Positions 14,150 to 47,240 of a stretch of 64,000 bases of DNA are shown piece by piece (the first letter of the stretch is position 1; each line of letters begins with the position of its first letter). The notes beneath the pieces are model-generated. The model saw only the letters and a program-made list of their open reading frames with translations, had not been told where the DNA came from and did not search any database. Source of the stretch: Octopus vulgaris (Eukaryota); assembly GCA_951406725.2 (NCBI GenBank), contig OX597828.1:12090001-12154000 (forward strand). Reading direction: 5' to 3'. Both the position numbers and the translations under genes were made by a program.

Positions 14150-14198
14150 AACCCAACGTTTCGGCTGATATACCCCCTTCCAGCCTTCTTCAGGCGTC
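14150..14198 (-). ncRNA. minimal type-I hammerhead ribozyme
   Basis: GACGC-CUGAAGA-A-GGCUG-(13-nt loop)-CAGCC-GAAA-CG-UU-GGGUU. Confidence 0.78.
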
Positions 14199-18576: not shown

Positions 18577-18751
18577 GTTTAAATATTTGTTGTGCAAGAT
18601 TTTTTATGTGAAGTCGTGTGTTGAAACAGATATTGTTATATTTCGGAATGGTCATATTGCCAGTTTAGCCAATAAAAACACACACACTATATATTTGGTG
18701 TTATTTTGCTTCAGTGATATTTATTTTTTACATTAATCTTAATCTTATTTC

Positions 18752-18796
18752 GGCCAAAGTTCTTTCGTCACACTCCTGTGACCGCATCAGTGGTCC
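18752..18796 (-). ncRNA. PLE hammerhead motif (CUGAUGC variant)
   Basis: GGACCA-CUGAUGC-G-GUCACA-GGAG-UGUGAC-GAAA-GAAC-UU-UGGCC. Confidence 0.6.
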
Positions 18797-19317
18797 TTTG
18801 TTTTCTTCTCACTTACTTGTGTCTCTCCTTACTAACCGTCAGCCATTTTGTATTTCTATTGTATGTCTTCATTTGCGCATGCTTATATCTCTATGTGCGT
18901 CTATGTTTATTTAGTGTGGGGGGGATGCCTGTAATATTTGTATCTTCTGGTTATATACATTCTTGTAATTTGTATTTTGTTTTTGTTGTTGTTGCTTTTG
19001 TTCTAATTTTATTCATGTGTTTACATCCACCCATTATTATCATTACATATGCTTGTATGTATGTATAACAACAATATTAGTAATAATAATAATAAATCTA
19101 ATCGAGAAAAAAAAAAAAAAAAAAGAATATACATATACATATATATATATATACATACACATACATATACATATATATATATATATATATATACATATAT
19201 ACACACATATATACACATATACATATACATATATATACACATATACATATATATAGATATTCATTTCTATTTCTTTAATTACCTGTGTATTTATTATGTT
19301 TGCAGGATCCACTATTG

Positions 19318-20652
19318 TCATATGTTGTGGTGTGCGCTATTGCTCCATTCTAGTTTTCTATTCAGGCTAGGTTTATTTTCTATTATATGTGTAGCTTCTG
19401 TAATTTGTCTAATTGTTGCATCTGTTCTATGTGTGGACAATATCTTAATCTCTATGTTATTGATTGATCCCCCGTGTTCTTGTTCGGCGTGTTGGTACAG
19501 AATCGATGAGCTTTTACCTTCCTTGAGTTGTCTCCAATATTCATTCACCCGCTCACCAATGCTTCTTGCAGTTTCCCCTACGTATGTTACTGTCTTGTTA
19601 CTGCATCGTCCCTCTATACATCTTATACTATAGACCACATTTCTGGCTTTACAGTTCGTTTGTGGGCTAAATCTACATACAGTGCAATAGTTATCCGTAC
19701 AGAGAGTTCTACTAAAAGGATAGGTTCTACCAATTATAGATCTGATAGGGTTGCCTGGCTTTTCAACAACCTTAATTCTTAGTTTAAGTTTATCTAGGGT
19801 CCTTCTAAAGCGGTACGCTAGTTCACCTCCAGGGGTGGTGTCAACGAACATGACACTCTGGTATTTATGGCTATCATACCAAGAGTTGGCCTTCCTTATT
19901 TTCTTTTTTGTCCTTTCTATAGTGTTCCATGACTTGTTCCTATAGAGTGGGCAAATCCCATTCCTATCATTACATAATATATTATCAAATTTCTTCATGG
20001 CTCCTTTGTATACTCTGATCCTTTCTTTATGGCTGTAACCTGAGAACTGCATGCGGTGAATGAAATACTGTATGTGCCTCTTTAATTCTGTAGGCTCGCA
20101 CATGCGTGACACATTTCTCATTATTCTGACGAGGTCTGCCATCAAAATATTGAATTTGGCATTGCCCGCAATGGCTGAGTTCCGGTGGATCAGGTATTTT
20201 GAGGCCATAGGTTTTGCATAGTATGAATGAAGGATTTGGGTTTTATTTTTCACAATTTCTAGCCAGAGTTCAGTGTCTAGTACTGGTAGTCTATGGTTGG
20301 GGTGTTTAGTGGGGTAGTCTATTGTGACCTTAATACTCTGGTGGATGGAGTTAGCTATTTGCTGGATGCTCTCCATAGTATTAGTTTCTATTACTATATC
20401 AACAGTACATTCTTGTGGGGGTGCCTTTACTACTATATTGATATCATCAACATAGCGAGAGTACATGTTTACGAGTATGGATTTCTGCAGTAGGCATTCT
20501 TTAAGCCTTCTGTCCCACCATACCATGAAGAGGTTGGCCACATCACCAGCGATACTAACACCGATGGCTGCCCCCTCGTCCTGGGCATATATTTTATTAT
20601 TAAATTTAAATGTGTGGCCTTTTAGGGTAACTCTTATACTAGCTCCTAGTAT
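19318..20652 (-). CDS. PLE polyprotein C-terminal part (RT motifs and GIY-YIG endonuclease), open to the stop but 5'-truncated
   Basis: Motifs [29 protein letters not shown], a CTDNYCTVC linker, and [26 protein letters not shown]. Confidence 0.9.
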
Positions 20653-22315
20653 AGTACTAGACACTGAACTCTGGCTAGAAATTGTGAAAAATAAAACCCA
20701 AATCCTTCATTCATACTATGCAAAACCTATGGCCTCAAAATACCTGATCCACCGGAACTCAGCCATTGCGGGCAATGCCAAATTCAATATTTTGATGGCA
20801 GACCTCGTCAGAATAATGAGAAATGTGTCACGCATGTGCGAGCCTACAGAATTAAAGAGACACATACAGTATTTCATTCACCGCATGCAGTTCTCAGGTT
20901 ACAGCCATAAAGAAAGGATCAGAGTATACAAAGGAGCCATGAAGAAATTTGATAATATATTATGTAATGATAGGAATGGGATTTGCCCACTCTATAGGAA
21001 CAAGTCATGGAACACTATAGAAAGGACAAAAAGAAAATAAGGAAGGCCAACTCTTGGTATGATAGCCATAAATACCAGAGTGTCATGTTCGTTGACACCA
21101 CCCCTGGAGGTGAACTAGCGTACCGCTTTAGAAGGACCCTAGATAAACTTAAACTAAGAATTAAGGTTGTTGAAAAGCCAGGCAACCCTATCAGATCTAT
21201 AATTGGTAGAACCTATCCTTTTAGTAGAACTCTCTGTACGGATAACTATTGCACTGTATGTAGATTTAGCCCACAAACGAACTGTAAAGCCAGAAATGTG
21301 GTCTATAGTATAAGATGTATAGAGGGACGATGCAGTAACAAGACAGTAACATACGTAGGGGAAACTGCAAGAAGCATTGGTGAGCGGGTGAATGAATATT
21401 GGAGACAACTCAAGGAAGGTAAAAGCTCATCGATTCTGTACCAACACGCCGAACAAGAACACGGGGGATCAATCAATAACATAGAGATTAAGATATTGTC
21501 CACACATAGAACAGATGCAACAATTAGACAAATTACAGAAGCTACACATATAATAGAAAATAAACCTAGCCTGAATAGAAAACTAGAATGGAGCAATAGC
21601 GCACACCACAACATATGACAATAGTGGATCCTGCAAACATAATAAATACACAGGTAATTAAAGAAATAGAAATGAATATCTATATATATGTATATGTGTA
21701 TATATATGTATATGTATATGTGTATATATGTGTGTATATATGTATATATATATATATATATATATGTATATGTATGTGTATGTATATATATATATATATG
21801 TATATGTATATTCTTTTTTTTTTTTTTTTTTCTCGATTAGATTTATTATTATTATTACTAATATTGTTGTTATACATACATACAAGCATATGTAATGATA
21901 ATAATGGGTGGATGTAAACACATGAATAAAATTAGAACAAAAGCAACAACAACAAAAACAAAATACAAATTACAAGAATGTATATAACCAGAAGATACAA
22001 ATATTACAGGCATCCCCCCCCCCACACACACTAAATAAACATAGACGCACATAGAGATATAAGCATGCGCAAATGAAGACATACAATAGAAATACAAAAT
22101 GGCTGACGGTTAGTAAGGAGAGACACAAGTAAGTGAGAAGAAAACAAAGGACCACTGATGCGGTCACAGGAGTGTGACGAAAGAACTTTGGCCGAAATAA
22201 GATTAAGATTAATGTAAAAAATAAATATCACTGAAGCAAAATAACACCAAATATATAGTGCGTGTGTTTTTATTGGCTAAACTGGCAATATGACCATTCC
22301 GAAATATAACAATAT
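20653..22315 (+). mobile_element. Penelope-like element, right copy (inverted duplicate of 18630-20284)
   Basis: Near-identical reverse complement of the left copy. A 1-nt A-run frameshift lies near 21030. Confidence 0.92.
22149..22193 (+). ncRNA. PLE hammerhead motif (CUGAUGC variant)
   Basis: Same sequence as 18752-18796, on the opposite strand. Confidence 0.6.
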
Positions 22316-22408: not shown

Positions 22409-23897
22409 TATGTATGTATGTACGTATGTCTATGTCTTTGTATCTGTGTTTGTCCCCCCGCTCCACTTGATAGCTGGTGATGGAGTGTTTACATCCCTGT
22501 AACTTAGCGATTCGGGAAAAGAGACTTATGGAATAAGTACCGGGGTCGATACAGTCGACAATAAACTCTTCAAGCGGTACTCCAGTACGGCTGCTGTCTA
22601 ATGACTGAAACAAGTAAAGGCTAAAAGAAAAAATATGTGCGTGCATGCGCACATGTGTATGTGTGTGTGTGTGTAATCATTTACAGGGTCAATCAAATCA
22701 CACAGCGTCAAAGAAATCCGAACGGGCGACCGTTTCTATAGTTGATATTAATTGTGTTTCATTTTAAATTTCGCTTGGGGCTTATATACGTCAAATTTCC
22801 ACTTTTATGATCTCGTCTACTTATTTCACAAGATATAATTCTTCCCCTGGCAATATTGTAAATATCCTCTCTTGAAATAGTTAGGTGTAATTTAAAGCAT
22901 ATATCAGTGTGCGTATTGAATATATACACACGTAGATATATATGTTTGTGAGTGTGTGTGTGTTTCTGCGTATGTGAGTGTGTGTGTGTGTGTGTATGTA
23001 TGTATATGTATGTATATATGGATATACATATGTGTATATGCATATGTATATATTTATGTATGTGTGTATGTATTTATTTATTTAAGGTTGGCATCATGAA
23101 CCTCCCTAGACAATACAAAATATTTTAAAGTAATTTTAAGAACCACAGAGCATTTATTGCTGGGAAACTCAATGCTTAAAATAGAGGGAAATTTATAAAA
23201 CTTGTTTTGACTAAATCTTCTTTCTGTTGTTATGTCTGGAGGACAATGGAGAGCTTTTTCTTTTTTAACAGAACCGAATGATTCGCTAATGAACTACATT
23301 TGTATTTAAATTTCTTAGTAAAAGTCGATTTGTATTTTTTTTGTGTTTGCTTTTGTTTCCAGTAAGAACAAAAACAATATCTTGTCTATGAGTTGAAATA
23401 CCATATAAACAAAATTAAATGTAGATAAATGATGGCGAGCAGGTGTAGTGAAACAAAACAACGGATGGCAAAAAATAATCCAGACGTTAGAAAATAAAAT
23501 GGAGACGTTCGAAGTGAGAAAAATCAAGGTGTGATCAAGTAATAGACATACCAATATACGTAAATATACGTTTCTGAGTTAGTCAAAGTAAAAGAGAAAA
23601 CTATAGATGATATATTTATATATTGAATAAGGGATAATGTTTGAGTTTTAGCTATACTGCTTGTACACAGTAATGCTACGTGGTCGCCTGTTTCCTTGTG
23701 AATGTGTGTATGATAGTCCGTTGTTTGTATATATAAGTTACTTGAAGAAAGAACTTGGAATGTAAACAGCATAAATTAAAAGCTTAATCGAATGAAGTTT
23801 TCAGTTTCAAGTGTTCTCGAAATGAATCAGTTTAAAGTTGTGTATAATGTAATGTATGTGATGCAATCCATTTAGAAACGTATGCTTAGTGAATTTA

Positions 23898-24572
23898 AAT
23901 ACTAATATACTTTAGATAAATATACTTGTATGTGTATGCTAGGCGTAAATGCATTACATTATTTATTTATATGAAAATTTTAGAAGCTGCAATATCATAA
24001 AAGAATTATTTAAATATTGATACAATAGTAAGTTCCTACCTATCATCTGCGTTATGCTAAGGGATGTAACTCAAATAAGAGGATTACTGAAAGCGATGGC
24101 TACTGTAAGAGAATATTTATCTGGTGTTTGCGCCAGATGTTGTTTGTTGTTGGTAGTCATGTTAATAATAACAACAGCAACGACATCGTTCTACAAATAT
24201 TACTTCTGCTAAGGTACTGGTATAATAATTATTTTCAATACTAATATACTTTATATAAATATACTTGTATGTGTATGCTAGGCATAAATGCATTACATTA
24301 TTTATTTATGTGAAAATTTTAGAAGCTGCAATATCATAAAAGAATTATTTAAATATTGATACAATAGTAAGTTCCTACCTATCATTTGCGTTATGCTAAG
24401 GGATGTAACTCAAATAAGAGGATTACTGAAAGCGATGGCTACTGTAAGAGAATATTTATCTGGTGTTTGCGCCAGATGTTGTTTGTTGTTGGTAGTCATG
24501 GTAATAATAGCAACTGCAACGACATCGTTCTACAAAAATTACTTCTGCTAAGGTGCTGGTTTAATATTTATT
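23898..24572. repeat. tandem duplication, 2 x about 339 bp
   Basis: AATACTAATATACTTTA begins at 23898 and again at 24237. The two copies differ by a few substitutions. Confidence 0.95.
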
Positions 24573-24986
24573 TATAATAGCTTTTGAATTTCACTTCATA
24601 AAAATAAGTTGAATAGCATTGTATAGCATCAATTCATACTTAGACAAACCTCCACTATCCACTCAGGTAACTAAAAATTTACCAACAACAACAACAACAT
24701 CACGACAACAGGCTGTATTTCACTTCTCACTGGTATCAGTGGTATTACGGTTCTCGTACGTATATTGCTACGTGCATTTGTGCAGGGGCATACCTGTACA
24801 CGCATGTATCACAATTTTTCTATCATCTCTGCCACACACTCTCTTTCTCTCAATCTCTCTCTCTCTCTTTCTCTCTCTCTATATATATGTATGTATATAT
24901 TTATGTATATATATATATATATACACATACATACATACCTATATATATTTCTGTCCTCTACACAATTACTAGTTTACACATTCAAC

Positions 24987-40508: not shown

Positions 40509-41696
40509 GAGGTATTACAATCCTAGAGAAGTAAAACCACGTTATAGAGTGCCTCAAGATATTATTATTCTAAAAATTTTGGTATTTCTAATTAAGAAAT
40601 CGTGAAATTTCAAATAATTATTTTAGTAATAATCTTCATTTTAAAATATTTCCAGAATTTGTATTGTAATTAATATTTTAATTAAAATTATTTAATGGTA
40701 CTACTTATATATCAAATAAATCTACGTCAATGCTAGTGGCTGTGCTTATACTAACATTGAAAAATAAATAACTCTATGTTATTTGTATATGAATATATTA
40801 AAATTTCTACGAGCATCATACGAAAGGTAGTAATACGTTTTAATAAGTCTATAACAGGATTTATACGATTTACACACTGGTGACGCTACAACCACCAAAA
40901 TTATTCGTGAGTGTACCATTTAATTGATTGTCTTTGAAATCAGTATATCATAGAATCATGCGTTTTCACACATGATGCGAATGTGCATGGGGAGAGAGAA
41001 AGAGATCATGGAATTAGATTAGGTACGGTTTAAGCCAATTTATGGTTGCTTTAAAAGAATTAAGTTACTTTAAAAGAATTAAGAGTATTAGGATTTTGGA
41101 AAAGATACTGCTGGAAATTATGTTGCTAATAATGGAAGGGAATTTTGTTTTAGTCGAGAATATTTTAAATAAAATAAATTAAGCCAAACAGCAGGCAGTA
41201 TTATTTCAAAAATTAGAAATAGAAAAAAATCTTTCCTTTAATGGATAAGTAGGTAATTGGTTATGTTTGAATGACATTATACCAATGCAAATATAGTGAA
41301 TACAACTAGTATTCAGTATATTAAAAAGGACAGTGTCTTTTGTACTTTTAATATTTAGGCAAATGAGGACTGCGAACTTGCAGAGTCGTTAGCATACCGG
41401 GTTAAATACTTAGCAGCATATCATCCGTCCTTACATCCTGGGTTCAAATGCTGCTGGGGTTGAATTTATCTTTCATCTTTTCAGGCAATAAAATAAGTAC
41501 CAGTTGTGTACTGGGATCGATGTAATCGACTTGGTCCCTCCCCGAAATGTCTGGCTTTGTACCAAAGTCTGAAACTAATATTTTGGTAAATGAAGTCATA
41601 GACATAAGATGTACATAGAGATGAACTCATATCGTATACATTTTCAAATAGCATTATGAATTATAAACGCGGTTAGAGGAAATATATGTATAAATG

Positions 41697-41855
<159 letters not shown>

Positions 41856-41909
41856 GAATAAATAAACACATTAATGGAGTTGAACGAAGATGTTAATAAA
41901 ATTCTTTTA

Positions 41910-41991
41910 CTTTCGACATAAGTTTCGAAGACAACATGGTTTTATTCCAAAGGAATAAACGGTGTAAGATGCAATCTTCTCATCAGGAAAG
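41910..41991 (-). ncRNA. canonical-core type-I hammerhead ribozyme
   Basis: CUUUC-CUGAUGA-GAAGA...UUUAUUCC-UUU-GGAAUAAA...UCUUC-GAAA-C-UUAU-G-UC-GAAAG, with a GUC cleavage triplet. Confidence 0.85.
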
Positions 41992-42141
41992 AAAGAGAAC
42001 CTCTCTCATCAACAAGACATTATAACAATTATGATGACTGCCTACATGATAAGCAGAACGTTATTAAGTATTTTTTTAAAAACATTGATATATATATATG
42101 TATGTACGTTCGTACATATAGATGGATAGGTAAATAGATAG

Positions 42142-42172
<31 letters not shown>

Positions 42173-42856
42173 TAGAGAGAGATATATACATACATACATA
42201 CATACATACATACATACATACATACATACATACATACATACATACATACATACATACATACATACATAGAAAATCATATCTACAATTAGTATGGAAATTA
42301 ATTAATTTGTTAGGTACTAAAAAAAATGTGCGATGTCGTATAAATATCCAGTCAATAGAATCTATGCGTCTAAAGTACAAGTTGTAACTGATAGCGACTT
42401 ATATGTTAATCTTCTGAAATATGAAATTGAGAAAAGAAAGCTATTTTAATTGACATTATTTTATATAAAGTAAATTACGATGAACAGCAGGCGGTGTTGA
42501 TTACCAAAACATATGTGAGTAAAGGAATTTTCTGTATAGCTGGGTGTATGACACTGAGAGAGAATCTTTTGATTTTGGTTGAAGCAAGACAAAATAAAAA
42601 GGGTAGTTAATTTTGTAGGTAACGTATAAATATAATGAATACGACGCGAAGGGGTTGGATTTGAATTTATCGTCTCTCTTATAACTTCAAATACTGATCT
42701 TTTCGGTATATCCAGATATACAATAGCGTTGATATACATGTAAATTTTCTGATAATAATTCTCATTACGAAATTTGATCAATTATATTTTTAAATATATG
42801 AATATATGTATGCATACGTACATACATATGTATGTATGAGTATAAATAATTTGATA

Positions 42857-43067
42857 TACTCTTTTACTTGTTTCAGTCATTTGACTGCGGCCAATGCTGG
42901 AGCACCGCCTTTAATCGAGCAACTCGACCCCGGGACTTATTCTTTTGTAAGCCCAGTACTTATTCTATCGGTCTTTTTGCCGAACCGCTAAGTAACGGGG
43001 GACATAAACACACCAGCGTCGGTTGTCAAGCAATGCTAGGGGGACAAACACAGACACACAAACACAC

Positions 43068-43109
<42 letters not shown>

Positions 43110-43271
43110 GACAGGCTTCTTTCAGTTTCCGTCTACCAAATCCAATCACAAGGCATTGGTCGGCCCGGGGCTATAGCAGAAGACACTTGCCCAAGGTGCC
43201 ACGCAGTGGGACTGAACTCGGAACCATGTGGTTGGTTAGCAAGCTACTTACCAGGCAGCCGCTCCTGCGCC
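42857..43271 (-). mobile_element. family-B SINE, full length, with internal (TA)n
   Basis: GGCGCAGGAGCGGCTG head through the CAAGTAAAAGAGTA tail. Confidence 0.9.
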
Positions 43272-43349
43272 TGATATATACATGTATAAAACACACACAC
43301 ATATATATAGACATATATACATGTGTGTGTGTATATATATATATATGTA

Positions 43350-43648
43350 TCAATGGTATCTCACGTCGTTAGAGGACGTGTGAGAGTTCGGCAATTTCTT
43401 GCCGAACAATCACACAGATGATTTGTTCATTGCGATCAAACATTTGTGTTCACATAAGCTCACTCCCTCCATCAAATCGTCCTCACCTGTACATGTGCAC
43501 CATGTGCCACATGTCAGATGATGAAATGATCGTAGAGCAACGTGAAATTGAATGTCTTGCACAAGAACATATCAGAATGTCTGGGAATCGAACGTACGAA
43601 TTCGCAATCGTGAGTGCAATGCCCTTACCACTAATCCATGTGTCATCT
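43350..43648 (-). mobile_element. tRNA-derived SINE of another family
   Basis: A-box TGGATTAGTGG, B-box GTTCGATTCC, and a CORE-like TTCTTGTGCAAGACA block. Confidence 0.65.
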
Positions 43649-44165
43649 AAGGCTGAGAGAACAGAGGGCAGTATCTGTTATGGGTAGGGCTGAGGGAGCA
43701 GACAGACATCATAGTTGGTATAGTCATAAAAATCAAGATTTATTAGAAGCAATATCATGAGGTTTGGTAAAGGAAATCTTAAAACAAGATGTTAGCTGAT
43801 AATTAAGGGGTCTCTCACAAGCAGACCATTGACAATGAAGCAAGGGAGGTTTTATCATGTTTGTATTTGTAATTGTGTAACATTTCTCCGATTTTTCCGT
43901 TCTTGTTTTCATATACATTCACTTGCTTTCTTCCAAAGAATCTAGTGCTCTTAGCTTAGATTTTCTTGGGCCCTGTCAGATTAGACCGGTCTCGAGATTA
44001 ACAGGCCGAAACTGCAAAGACGATCTGCTTCTCGACTGATAATTGAAAGCTCCGAATGACCCGTCCTTGCTTTTTCCTCTCCTTTTTTGTATCATCTAAC
44101 TGTCCGAATGTTTTGTTGTCGCCTGTTACGTTCTTGTTCCGTTTTGTGTTTTGATTTTAAACACA

Positions 44166-44203
<38 letters not shown>

Positions 44204-44221
44204 TACATATATGTATGTATG

Positions 44222-44300
<79 letters not shown>

Positions 44301-44616
44301 CAAATAAGAAAAAGGAAGAAACAAATTTAGTTTATTCATCAACTTACGGATATTATAATGTTGGATTATTTATTCATTTTACAAACAAGAACATTAAAAG
44401 CTTACAAATTATTTTATATAAATCAATAGATAAGATAATAATACAAATATAGATCTTAAAAGTCATATTATAAATTATTGAAATCCAGAAATTACTTCTT
44501 ACAGCTGTTTCAGCCTATGTTGGATCGCATTTTCATTGCCTATAGATGTCAACAGTATATTGGATAAATGATATCCCATAGAGGGTTACACCCATAACCC
44601 GTATCTTACTTTGTAC

Positions 44617-44661
<45 letters not shown>

Positions 44662-45005
44662 TTAGAGATAAAACCACTATTAGGCAAATGAAACAGTGAA
44701 AAACATAAACCAAAACATAGAAATAAAATTAATTAATATAATATACAAAATATATAAAATATAAAATTCAAAATTTAAATTATTTAAATTTAAAATTAAA
44801 ATTAAAATTTTTTTTTAATTATTAATTTATACTTATAAATTTATATATATATATTATAGTTCATTTTTATTTTTGTTTTTTATTTATTTAATTATATATT
44901 TATTTAAATTTTTTTGTAATTATATTAAATATATATAACTATCAAAAAGTTTCAATAAGTTTAATATAAGATAAAAGTAAAATCACAAATATATATATAT
45001 ATATA

Positions 45006-45068
<63 letters not shown>

Positions 45069-45167
45069 GTGTAGGAAGACAGTTTGTGCCATTTATTCCA
45101 TGGGCTCGTCGTGAGCGTTTTGTCAAAAAGCTTGCTGTGCATTTTGTTGGAGAATTAAGTTCCTGGA

Positions 45168-45251
45168 TTTTCCTGAAGAGAAGGCTGCAAAATGGACTCC
45201 TTATTCAATCCGAATTAGGGACTTTGCAGCCTTTGAAACATATATAGAAAA
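45168..45251 (+). ncRNA. type-I hammerhead ribozyme with a 12-bp stem II
   Basis: UUUUC-CUGAAGA-GAAGGCUGCAAA...UUUGCAGCCUUU-GAAA-CAUAUA-UA-GAAAA. Confidence 0.8.
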
Positions 45252-45555
45252 TAATAAAAAGGAATTTTGTTAAATCTTCGTTCAGCTCCATTTCTTCCTA
45301 CACTAAATATATAAAACTTCAAATTTCCGCACTAAGGCACGGATTTTAGGCCCCATGGTCGTAACCTCAACCGTACCTTTTCTGTTGTGATTTTTGCTAC
45401 CCAGGTATCGGTTATCATTTGAATTATCCGTAATAAGATAATTCATTTATCTACTTCAATATATATATATATATACTTGCACACACAGATAAGCATACAC
45501 AAACTTCAATATACGTATATATATATGTATGTGTGTGGGGGGGGGGTTGCGTATG

Positions 45556-45934
45556 AGGCGCAATAGCCCAGTGGTTAGGGCAGCAGACTCACGGTCTTAG
45601 GATTGCGGTTTCGATTTCCAGACTGGTCCTTGTGAGTGTTTATCGTGCGAAAACACTTAAAGCCTCGCGAGGCTCCGGCAGGGGATGGTGGTGAATCCTG
45701 CTGTACTCTTTCACCACGACTTCTTCTCACTCTTTCTTCCTGTTTTTGTTGTACCTGTATTTCAAAGGGGCCAGCTTTGTCACACTCTGTGTCATGCTGA
45801 ATCTCCCCGAAAACTACGTTAAGGGTACACGTGTCTGTGGAGTGCTCAGCTACTTGCACGTTAATTTCACGATCAGGCTGTTCCGTTGATTGGAGGAGCT
45901 GGAATACCCTCGTCGTAACCGACGGAGTGCCGCA

Positions 45935-46899: not shown

Positions 46900-47240
46900 A
46901 TTACACGAACGTATATAAACAGGAGGTACAAATATTACCCACACACCCACTAACTAAACATAGACACACATAGAGGTATACGCATGCGCAAATAAAGACA
47001 CATACAATAGGAATACAAAATGCAAAATGGCTGACCGTTAGTAAGGAGAGACACAAATAAGAAAGAAGAAAGCAAAGGACCACTGATGAGGTCACAGAAG
47101 TGTGACGAAAGAACTCTGGCCGAAATAAGATTAAGATTAATGTGAAAAATAAATAACGCTGAAGCAAAATAACACCAAATATATAGTGCGCGTGTTTTTA
47201 TTGGCTACGCTGGCAAAATGACCATTCCTAAATACAACAA
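46900..47240 (+). mobile_element. solo PLE 3' end (pseudo-LTR) related to 21980-22315, with an intact-core HHR at 47077-47121
   Basis: Colinear similarity to the PLE end. HHR reads GGACCA-CUGAUGA-G-GUCACA-GAAG-UGUGAC-GAAA-GAAC-UC-UGGCC. Confidence 0.85.

Follow-up and report, generated by a model that had tools for sequence, protein, structure and literature searches.

The stretch of Octopus vulgaris DNA analysed here (GenBank assembly GCA_951406725.2, contig OX597828.1, forward-strand positions 12,090,001 to 12,154,000; termed the window at its full length of 64,000 nucleotides, nt) raises the question of what two hammerhead ribozyme (HHR)-like motifs with long and different stems are doing on opposite strands, about 3 kb apart. 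An earlier reading of the letters alone (the sequence-only reading) had proposed that they belong to one repeat family in which structure is under selection. The motifs are almost certainly hammerheads of Penelope-like elements (PLEs). Probably each is the type I hammerhead fold from the truncated 3′ end of one of two subfamilies of a Hydra-like Penelope retrotransposon, whose ribozyme likely cuts, in the parent elements, only as a dimer formed through its palindrome. The repeat is an autonomous Hydra-like PLE and represents no new repeat class. The fold is a real, selected RNA structure; its association with PLEs is known, and the form is longer than in the literature compared. The role of the hammerhead in PLEs has been described as an open question (PMC8557442; here and below, published systems are cited from parts of the papers named).

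Two Hammerheads with a Common Core

Copy A (41856–42083, minus strand; offsets −94 to about +130, counted here and throughout from core position C3 of each hammerhead) is a 5′-truncated single arm of PLE subfamily A, and it carries predicted hammerhead A at 41910–41991. On the minus strand, stem I CUUUC (41991–41987) leads into the core CUGAUGA (41986–41980, with C3 at 41986), which is followed by a 53-nt stem II region (41979–41927), GAAA (41926–41923), the stem III segment CUUAUG with U16.1, C17 at 41915 and GAAAG (41914–41910). The predicted cut is 3′ of C 41915. In Copy B, the long arm (45077–45464, plus strand; −96 to about +290) is a 5′-truncated end of PLE subfamily B with predicted hammerhead B at 45168–45251. 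Here stem I UUUUC (45168–45172), the core CUGAAGA (45173–45179, with C3 at 45173), a 55-nt stem II region (45180–45234), GAAA (45235–45238), the site AUA (45244–45246) and GAAAA (45247–45251) succeed one another on the plus strand, and the predicted cut is 3′ of A 45246. Each predicted hammerhead thus has three helices about its core and is open at stem I; they are stem Ia, the stem II region and a minimal stem III of only two pairs, of which the 15.2–16.2 pair is broken in Copy B.

Both motifs, and the downstream sequence common to them, lie at the positions given by the sequence-only reading. The type I core (C3 U4 G5 A6 N7 G8 A9, G12 A13 A14, A15.1–U16.1 and H17) is present in both copies. 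The covariation noted in stem I (CUUUC/GAAAG versus UUUUC/GAAAA) can be read in both, and throughout the family stems I and II covary, with frequent mismatches. Stem II also pairs in both and includes an inner hairpin in both, joined to an 11-pair rod with one U-U mismatch and an asymmetric loop in Copy A and to a 12-pair rod in Copy B. These stems are not unrelated, however, but homologous, with about 70% identity between the copies over 125 nt.

What had been described as one conserved flank is better divided in two. Its GAAUUUU part most plausibly supplies the 3′ strand for an outer segment of stem I, termed stem Ib, which is predicted to pair 41996–42003 with 41905–41898 in Copy A (minus strand) and 45157–45164 with 45260–45267 in Copy B (plus strand). 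The rest is a separate conserved 3′ motif, UCUUCGUUCARCUCCAUU, found at 41873–41890 (minus strand) in Copy A and at 45275–45292 (plus strand) in Copy B; its function is presumably recognition by an element protein near the short 3′ end.

The motifs exceed chance. The folding z scores of the stem II regions against shuffles are −3.0 (A) and −4.5 (B), and two disjoint patterns for long-spacer hammerheads match the genome 7,485 and 5,501 times, compared to 9 (in a reversed control) and 11 control matches. First-look searches returned 1,781 genomic candidates for A and 1,502 for B; among the 40 scored in each search, near-identical copies match over the whole length at 94–98% (A) and 96–99% (B) identity.

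The Parent Element

Upstream of the hammerheads, both families extend into open reading frames (ORFs) for a reverse transcriptase (RT) and endonuclease. An intact ORF of 900 amino acids displays, by eye and in an alignment of homologues, the motifs DKT and YRDD, a C-terminal IYQ..YIG, CxxC and CxH. It has 37 homologues at 34–41% identity, and searches with it against Pfam and PDB gave nothing significant. A single ORF with RT plus a GIY-YIG endonuclease at its C terminus is what endonuclease-bearing (EN+) PLEs require. In comparison with Hydra reference proteins, for which alignments were judged by eye, traits of the Hydra clade are found (DKT, CxxC and CxH in place of CCHH around E and N, (TA)n targets and an HHR), and the RWK motif is RWL. 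The CxCX5C linker of Hydra is absent, with Asn-rich sequence in its place, and the element is therefore named Hydra-like and is not filed in the Hydra clade. Identity as Naiad or Nematis was ruled out by domain order and motifs. Subfamilies A and B are 58% identical in the aligned C-terminal part of the protein.

The hammerhead is a regular companion of this protein. At 90 loci picked by endonuclease alone (90 of 150 listed), an HHR region lies downstream on the same strand in 86, mostly 500–600 nt past the stop codon, and the intact core pattern occurs in 78 of 85 endonuclease-selected copies. No match to the PLE ORF was found within the window, so both window copies are truncated stubs. Contigs of four runs guessed to be RNA cover parts of the element, in a form from which strand, ends and level are not readable.

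At several loci (L289:3474–6176, L064 and L067–L068), the linker is replaced by an Asn-rich low-complexity stretch of variable length, and (TA)n is still targeted. Such targeting without a CxCX5C linker calls the proposed targeting role of the linker into question.

Selection in Replicating Lineages

Divergence was measured free of core ascertainment in 78 mapped loci, among pairs with more than 30% third-position divergence (mean 0.443). In those pairs, the 11 core positions diverge by 0.008, the 3′ motif by 0.065 and the palindrome of stem III by 0.126, compared to 0.15–0.18 in the stems, 0.229 in inner stem II and 0.472 in the upstream untranslated region (UTR). All 11 catalytic positions are kept, and H17 is A, C or U in 78/78 copies, which is partly set by the pattern used. 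The palindrome has the form ACAYRUGU in 76 of the 78 copies and is broken in both window copies, and the 55-nt length of stem II is kept in 72.

Changes were also counted by parsimony on a tree of 209 distinct copies, with 152 unbiased leaves for terminal core changes. Core changes number 0 at the lineage level versus 7 at the tips (p 0.0025), and palindrome changes preserve self-complementarity in 5/5 lineage-level cases versus 4/14 terminal ones (p 0.011). The stems lean the same way (Ia p 0.0015, IIa p 0.036, Ib p 0.059). Core, palindrome, stems and 3′ motif are constrained between subfamilies and decay after insertion. The earlier claim that structure is under selection holds for the replicating lineages and fails for the inserted copies. 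A young, high-copy family of this kind amounts to a natural mutational series, in which catalytic core and dimer palindrome are selected as the element replicates.

Pairing in the alignment is consistent with the model. Among 16 hand-picked representatives, 91.4% of cells pair, compared to 36–50% in slid controls, and 7 of 22 pairs change on both sides. The G after A9 pairs with C in 117 and with U in 85 of the 209 copies, and a shifted register is possible in the U subfamilies. For a stem I–stem II contact, stem Ib with an internal loop is predicted, and no convincing covarying pseudoknot was found. Two other tertiary candidates were rejected: a pseudoknot that would join the bulge of stem II to the 3′ motif has its pairs only in the B-side subfamilies, and pairing of the 3′ motif with a core strand involves 6 pairs with no compensation in A.

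Decay of the Window Copies

The window copies themselves are dead fragments and ordinary debris. Copy A differs from its nearest copy in 2 of 136 columns, one of which is A15.3>U (position 41921), a change found in 1 of 36 A-type copies. The first motif is canonical in its core, as claimed, and carries this private change in its palindrome. Copy B has a single difference from its nearest copy, G16.2>A (position 45244), found in 1 of 45 B-type copies, which converts GUA to AUA with loss of the 15.2–16.2 pair. The stem III palindrome consequently reads ACUUAUGU in Copy A (41916–41923, minus strand) and ACAUAUAU in Copy B (45238–45245, plus strand), compared to the family form ACAUAUGU. Predicted self-duplex energies are −7.0 kcal/mol for the family form, +0.8 for A and −1.4 for B. 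The lesions in both copies arose after insertion, and they likely impair both hammerheads. The span 41910–41991 by itself holds a broken dimer palindrome and is without the outer stem I segment.

Copies A and B are separate insertions into microsatellites that likely lie close together by chance, since 7,485 arms per 2.8 Gb make close pairs expected. That they might be the two arms of one insertion was ruled out by their roughly 70% identity, their different subfamilies, the 3 kb of other repeats between them and the lack of a PLE ORF match in the window. Their opposite orientation means that they cannot pair with each other within one transcript.

Insertion Anatomy and Unit Layout

Insertions of this family have a stereotyped anatomy. 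At 30 loci that were selected through the 3′ motif, all but one of 42 arms end either at +139/140 or at +285–291, and 33 of these 41 span the predicted cut. All 16 two-armed insertions pair one short-ended with one long-ended arm, back to back, and the 10 that were inspected have their outer ends in (TA)n. Copy B is of this two-armed type, with a short arm of 16 nt and a long arm of 390 nt. Its short arm is an inverted piece of the short 3′ end (45064–45079, minus strand) with its outer end in (TA)n; the arms meet at an AGA microhomology, and the long arm also has its outer end in (TA)n. A tail of about 150 nt (45314–45464, plus strand) separates the short end (+140) from the long one (+288 to +291). 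Copy A consists of one short-ended arm only, which terminates at the family's short 3′ end, with microsatellites on both sides; a partner arm was not found.

In whole elements, the tail of about 150 nt runs on into the 5′ UTR and an ATG at +337, which shows that the unit is circularly permuted. The motif accordingly lies between successive copies of the RT-endonuclease ORF, past the end of one and ahead of the start of the next, with 263 nt from the predicted cut to the ATG. At one locus, a natural partial tandem has the ORF between two hammerheads on the same strand, spaced 3,682 nt. The partial tandem (pseudo-long terminal repeat, pLTR), an adjacent inverted truncated copy and a tail are all found, as in EN+ PLEs (L291, L290).

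Among 57 long loci, six forward arms include the whole ORF from its ATG. Their starts lie at about +276 to +293 in four cases, at +146 in one and at −71 in one. An additional pair of likely duplicates is inverted at +337 to +345. These whole-ORF starts, a small sample, fit either a single round of synthesis around a circle or transcription that begins near +280. Of the six arms (L289, L301, L375, L380, L290 and L291), five begin near one of the two end positions, long or short. Starts of single arms at +74 (L372), +80 (L290) and +86 (L384) are too few for a cleavage footprint.

The same microhomologies are used repeatedly by independent arm junctions at four loci (L335, L339, L351 and L353), with two located at complementary strands of stem Ib. 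These recurrent junctions suggest template switching guided by the RNA's own stems.

Proposed Cleavage Mechanism and Alternatives

In the proposed mechanism, two hammerheads of one tandem transcript would pair through the 8-nt stem III palindrome and, probably aided by an element protein, would release unit-length RNA. The long stem II and outer stem I segment form a predicted peripheral scaffold that may provide a stem I–stem II contact. The template for insertion would be either a tandem RNA left uncut or a circle closed by re-ligation; linear RNA cut at both sites is not suitable, because insertions end 66 or about 215 nt past the cut yet extend upstream across it. This dimer-dependent, probably protein-assisted cleavage in the parents' tandem transcripts is, on balance, favored, and it is argued from the selected core and palindrome together with the published behavior of PLE hammerheads. 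Monomeric PLE minimal hammerheads (min-HHRs) do not cleave and dimer cleavage has been reported (PMC4209133), as has protein-assisted cleavage of a PLE HHR (PMC11167929). A more specific proposal, that the long stem II and outer stem I constitute a distinct architecture, dominant here, which makes dimer cleavage and re-ligation efficient, so that autonomous PLEs are copied from unit-length RNA circles, is possible but doubtful. It would account for the four of six whole-ORF arms whose starts are no more than about 12 nt from the long priming site, a position that one polymerase round on a circle would give.

Several observations, in addition to the missing linker, weigh against the main explanation. 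None of 41 arms has a 5′ end that lies within 5 nt of the cut. Junctions are seen at the cut in 9 of 13 matches and at a control site, 14 nt from it, in 7 of 14, with no pile-up. Most insertions have inverted arms, which are unable to dimerise in cis, and insertion of the anole PLE in vitro did not need cleavage (PMC11167929). The structural support is also uneven. The p values above are descriptive only, because the tree was built from the tested columns and the A-type rows were hand-shifted in stem Ib. The fourth pair of stem IIa is A-C in 81 of 209 copies, its seventh is U-U or G-A in 67, and lineage-level breaks in this stem (11) equal repairs (11). RNAalifold recovers stem II alone; a blind helix scan placed a G-U-rich helix outside the model above stem Ib and left IIa unlisted; and the pairing probability of stem Ia is 0.04–0.08 in 3/4 monomer folds.

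These points bear differently on the alternatives. If the long stems II and I stabilised a monomeric ribozyme through tertiary contacts, the palindrome would be merely a two-pair stem III. Such a ribozyme would explain the tight conservation of the 55-nt length (72/78) and recalls canonical type I HHRs, in which an internal loop of stem I contacts stem II (PMC3088659), stem Ib having an internal loop of its own. It is unlikely, since all five lineage-level palindrome changes retain a self-complementarity in the loop pair that a monomer does not need, no covarying stem I–II pseudoknot stood out, and stem III reaches a probability of 0.22 at most in monomer folds. The fold could instead serve the element protein as a binding or folding platform, or serve priming, while cleaving little or not at all in vivo, and the long stem II would then be a tolerated insertion. 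The arms that cross the site uncut (33/41) and the lack of a junction excess at the cut are in line with this, as are the anole PLE, in which insertion is normal with a mutated HHR and the cut is not the end of any read (PMC11167929), the variability of inner stem II, which is the highest in the fold, and the existence of 72–101-nt forms. What renders a platform improbable is the retention of 11 catalytic positions and H17 over 44% synonymous divergence, which fits catalysis better than binding.

An origin from non-coding, retrozyme-type tandem repeats instead of coding elements would suit the short, ORF-less window copies. It conflicts with the extension of both families into RT-endonuclease ORFs and with the 3,682-nt unit, and short tandem arrays were not seen in the loci examined; this origin is very improbable and is largely refuted for both families. 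Dimer-dependent cleavage by the hammerheads of a coding, Hydra-like PLE remains the preferred reading.

Long Stem II in the Octopus Genome

Long-stem forms are abundant in this genome. Taken together, the two long-spacer patterns give at least 12,986 matches, compared to 838 with a spacer of 12–41 nt (control 26), or about 15:1, a ratio that is approximate because the patterns differ slightly. Spacers of 72–101 nt give 823 matches versus 28 in the control. Seven more sequence-distinct families, inspected by eye at 30 loci, have the long rod and palindrome in common and differ in their stems I, and a PLE protein match, a weak one, lies near one of them only. Of 42 stem II regions tested, 36 have z below −1, and self-complementary 8-mers of other sequence occur in other long-stem motifs. 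Eighteen short-spacer matches (L070–L087) derive from the long stem II by internal deletion, which has often removed the inner hairpin.

The sequence-only reading had named the Rfam hammerhead model as a check, and this gave no support: the window holds 0 hammerhead matches at the gathering threshold, and none is among 71 matches at E up to 10 in 41500–45700. The long-stem forms are missed by Rfam, and because they also outnumber short forms about 15:1, counts of ribozymes in such genomes probably fall far short. The long-stem form was not found described in the literature on Penelope that was compared; Lunse et al. 2017 (on PLE hammerhead variants), Arkhipova et al. 2017 or the supplements of Cervera 2014 may show it. 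In the parts seen of the octopus repeat annotation paper (PMC13282606), hammerhead, ribozyme and Hydra are not mentioned.

Comparison with Known Systems

The element resembles Hydra-clade PLEs, including Hydra-1_Obim (Craig et al. 2021, PMC8557442), in its type I HHR near the 3′ end, DKT-type RT, C-terminal GIY-YIG, short palindromic stem III, (TA)n targets, inverted 5′-truncated arms and tail. In those PLEs, however, stem II has 3–7 base pairs (bp) and a loop of 3–10 nt (26 rows, File S2), with a stem II region of at most about 26 nt, whereas 11–12 pairs and 53–55 nt are found here. The unit is also longer (3.68 kb here versus <3 kb), as is the tail (about 150 nt here versus 30–40), and Asn-rich sequence takes the place of their CxCX5C linker (PMC8557442).

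Min-HHRs (Cervera and de la Pena 2014, PMC4209133) share with the present hammerheads a helix I of 4–5 bp, a palindromic 15.2–16.2 plus loop 3, many families per genome, compensatory changes, inverted pairs 100–700 bp apart and a predicted dimer action. Their helix II has 7–8 bp after an unpaired nucleotide and is already "larger than usual"; the present one is longer, its G10.1 can pair with C or U, and it comes with a predicted outer stem Ib, unlike in min-HHRs (PMC4209133). The long form would work like a min-HHR, yet falls outside that helix II consensus. The earlier claim that stem II departs from textbook PLE hammerheads is right as to length, and the published 7–8 bp helices and 29–35-nt loops make it the extension of a trend. 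Those long loops (29 and 35 nt, flagged as non-canonical in File S2) belong to spike-moss PLE-X1, a plant, endonuclease-less element of another clade, and are two cases versus thousands of copies here (PMC8557442).

In the Poseidon PLE of Anolis (Frangieh et al. 2024, PMC11167929), the HHR also lies near the ORF start, targets are AT-rich, and two internal ends downstream of the HHR define a tail. Its ORF starts inside stem II, whereas the ATG here is 263 nt past the cut, and its RT starts are 30–40 nt apart, compared to ends about 150 nt apart here (PMC11167929). Animal non-LTR retrozymes are similar in their type I HHR, weak palindromic helix III, proposed circular intermediates and link to PLEs (PMC7229834; bioRxiv 10.64898/2026.07.22.740005); unlike the coding-element ends described here, they are short non-coding tandem repeats (PMC7229834).

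Other Features of the Window

A near-perfect 3.7-kb palindrome at 18630–22315 looks like the two-armed insertion of another PLE. It contains an RT-like ORF (20706–19321, minus strand; RVT_1 E 0.003) and a GIY-YIG-like ORF (20998–21615, plus strand; E 0.008), both below the Pfam cut-off. The segment at 47018–47240 (plus strand) is an end of the same family as the tips of this palindrome and has a short-stem hammerhead-like core at 47083. A further hammerhead-like core, with stem II GGCUG/CAGCC, is found at about 14160–14193 on the minus strand. Short interspersed nuclear element (SINE)-like repeats lie between and beside copies A and B (42860–43270 and 45555–45700), with more copies in the window, and weak tRNA similarity is seen within such a repeat at 45557–45610. 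At 23894–24573, a 339-nt unit is tandemly duplicated with 96% identity.

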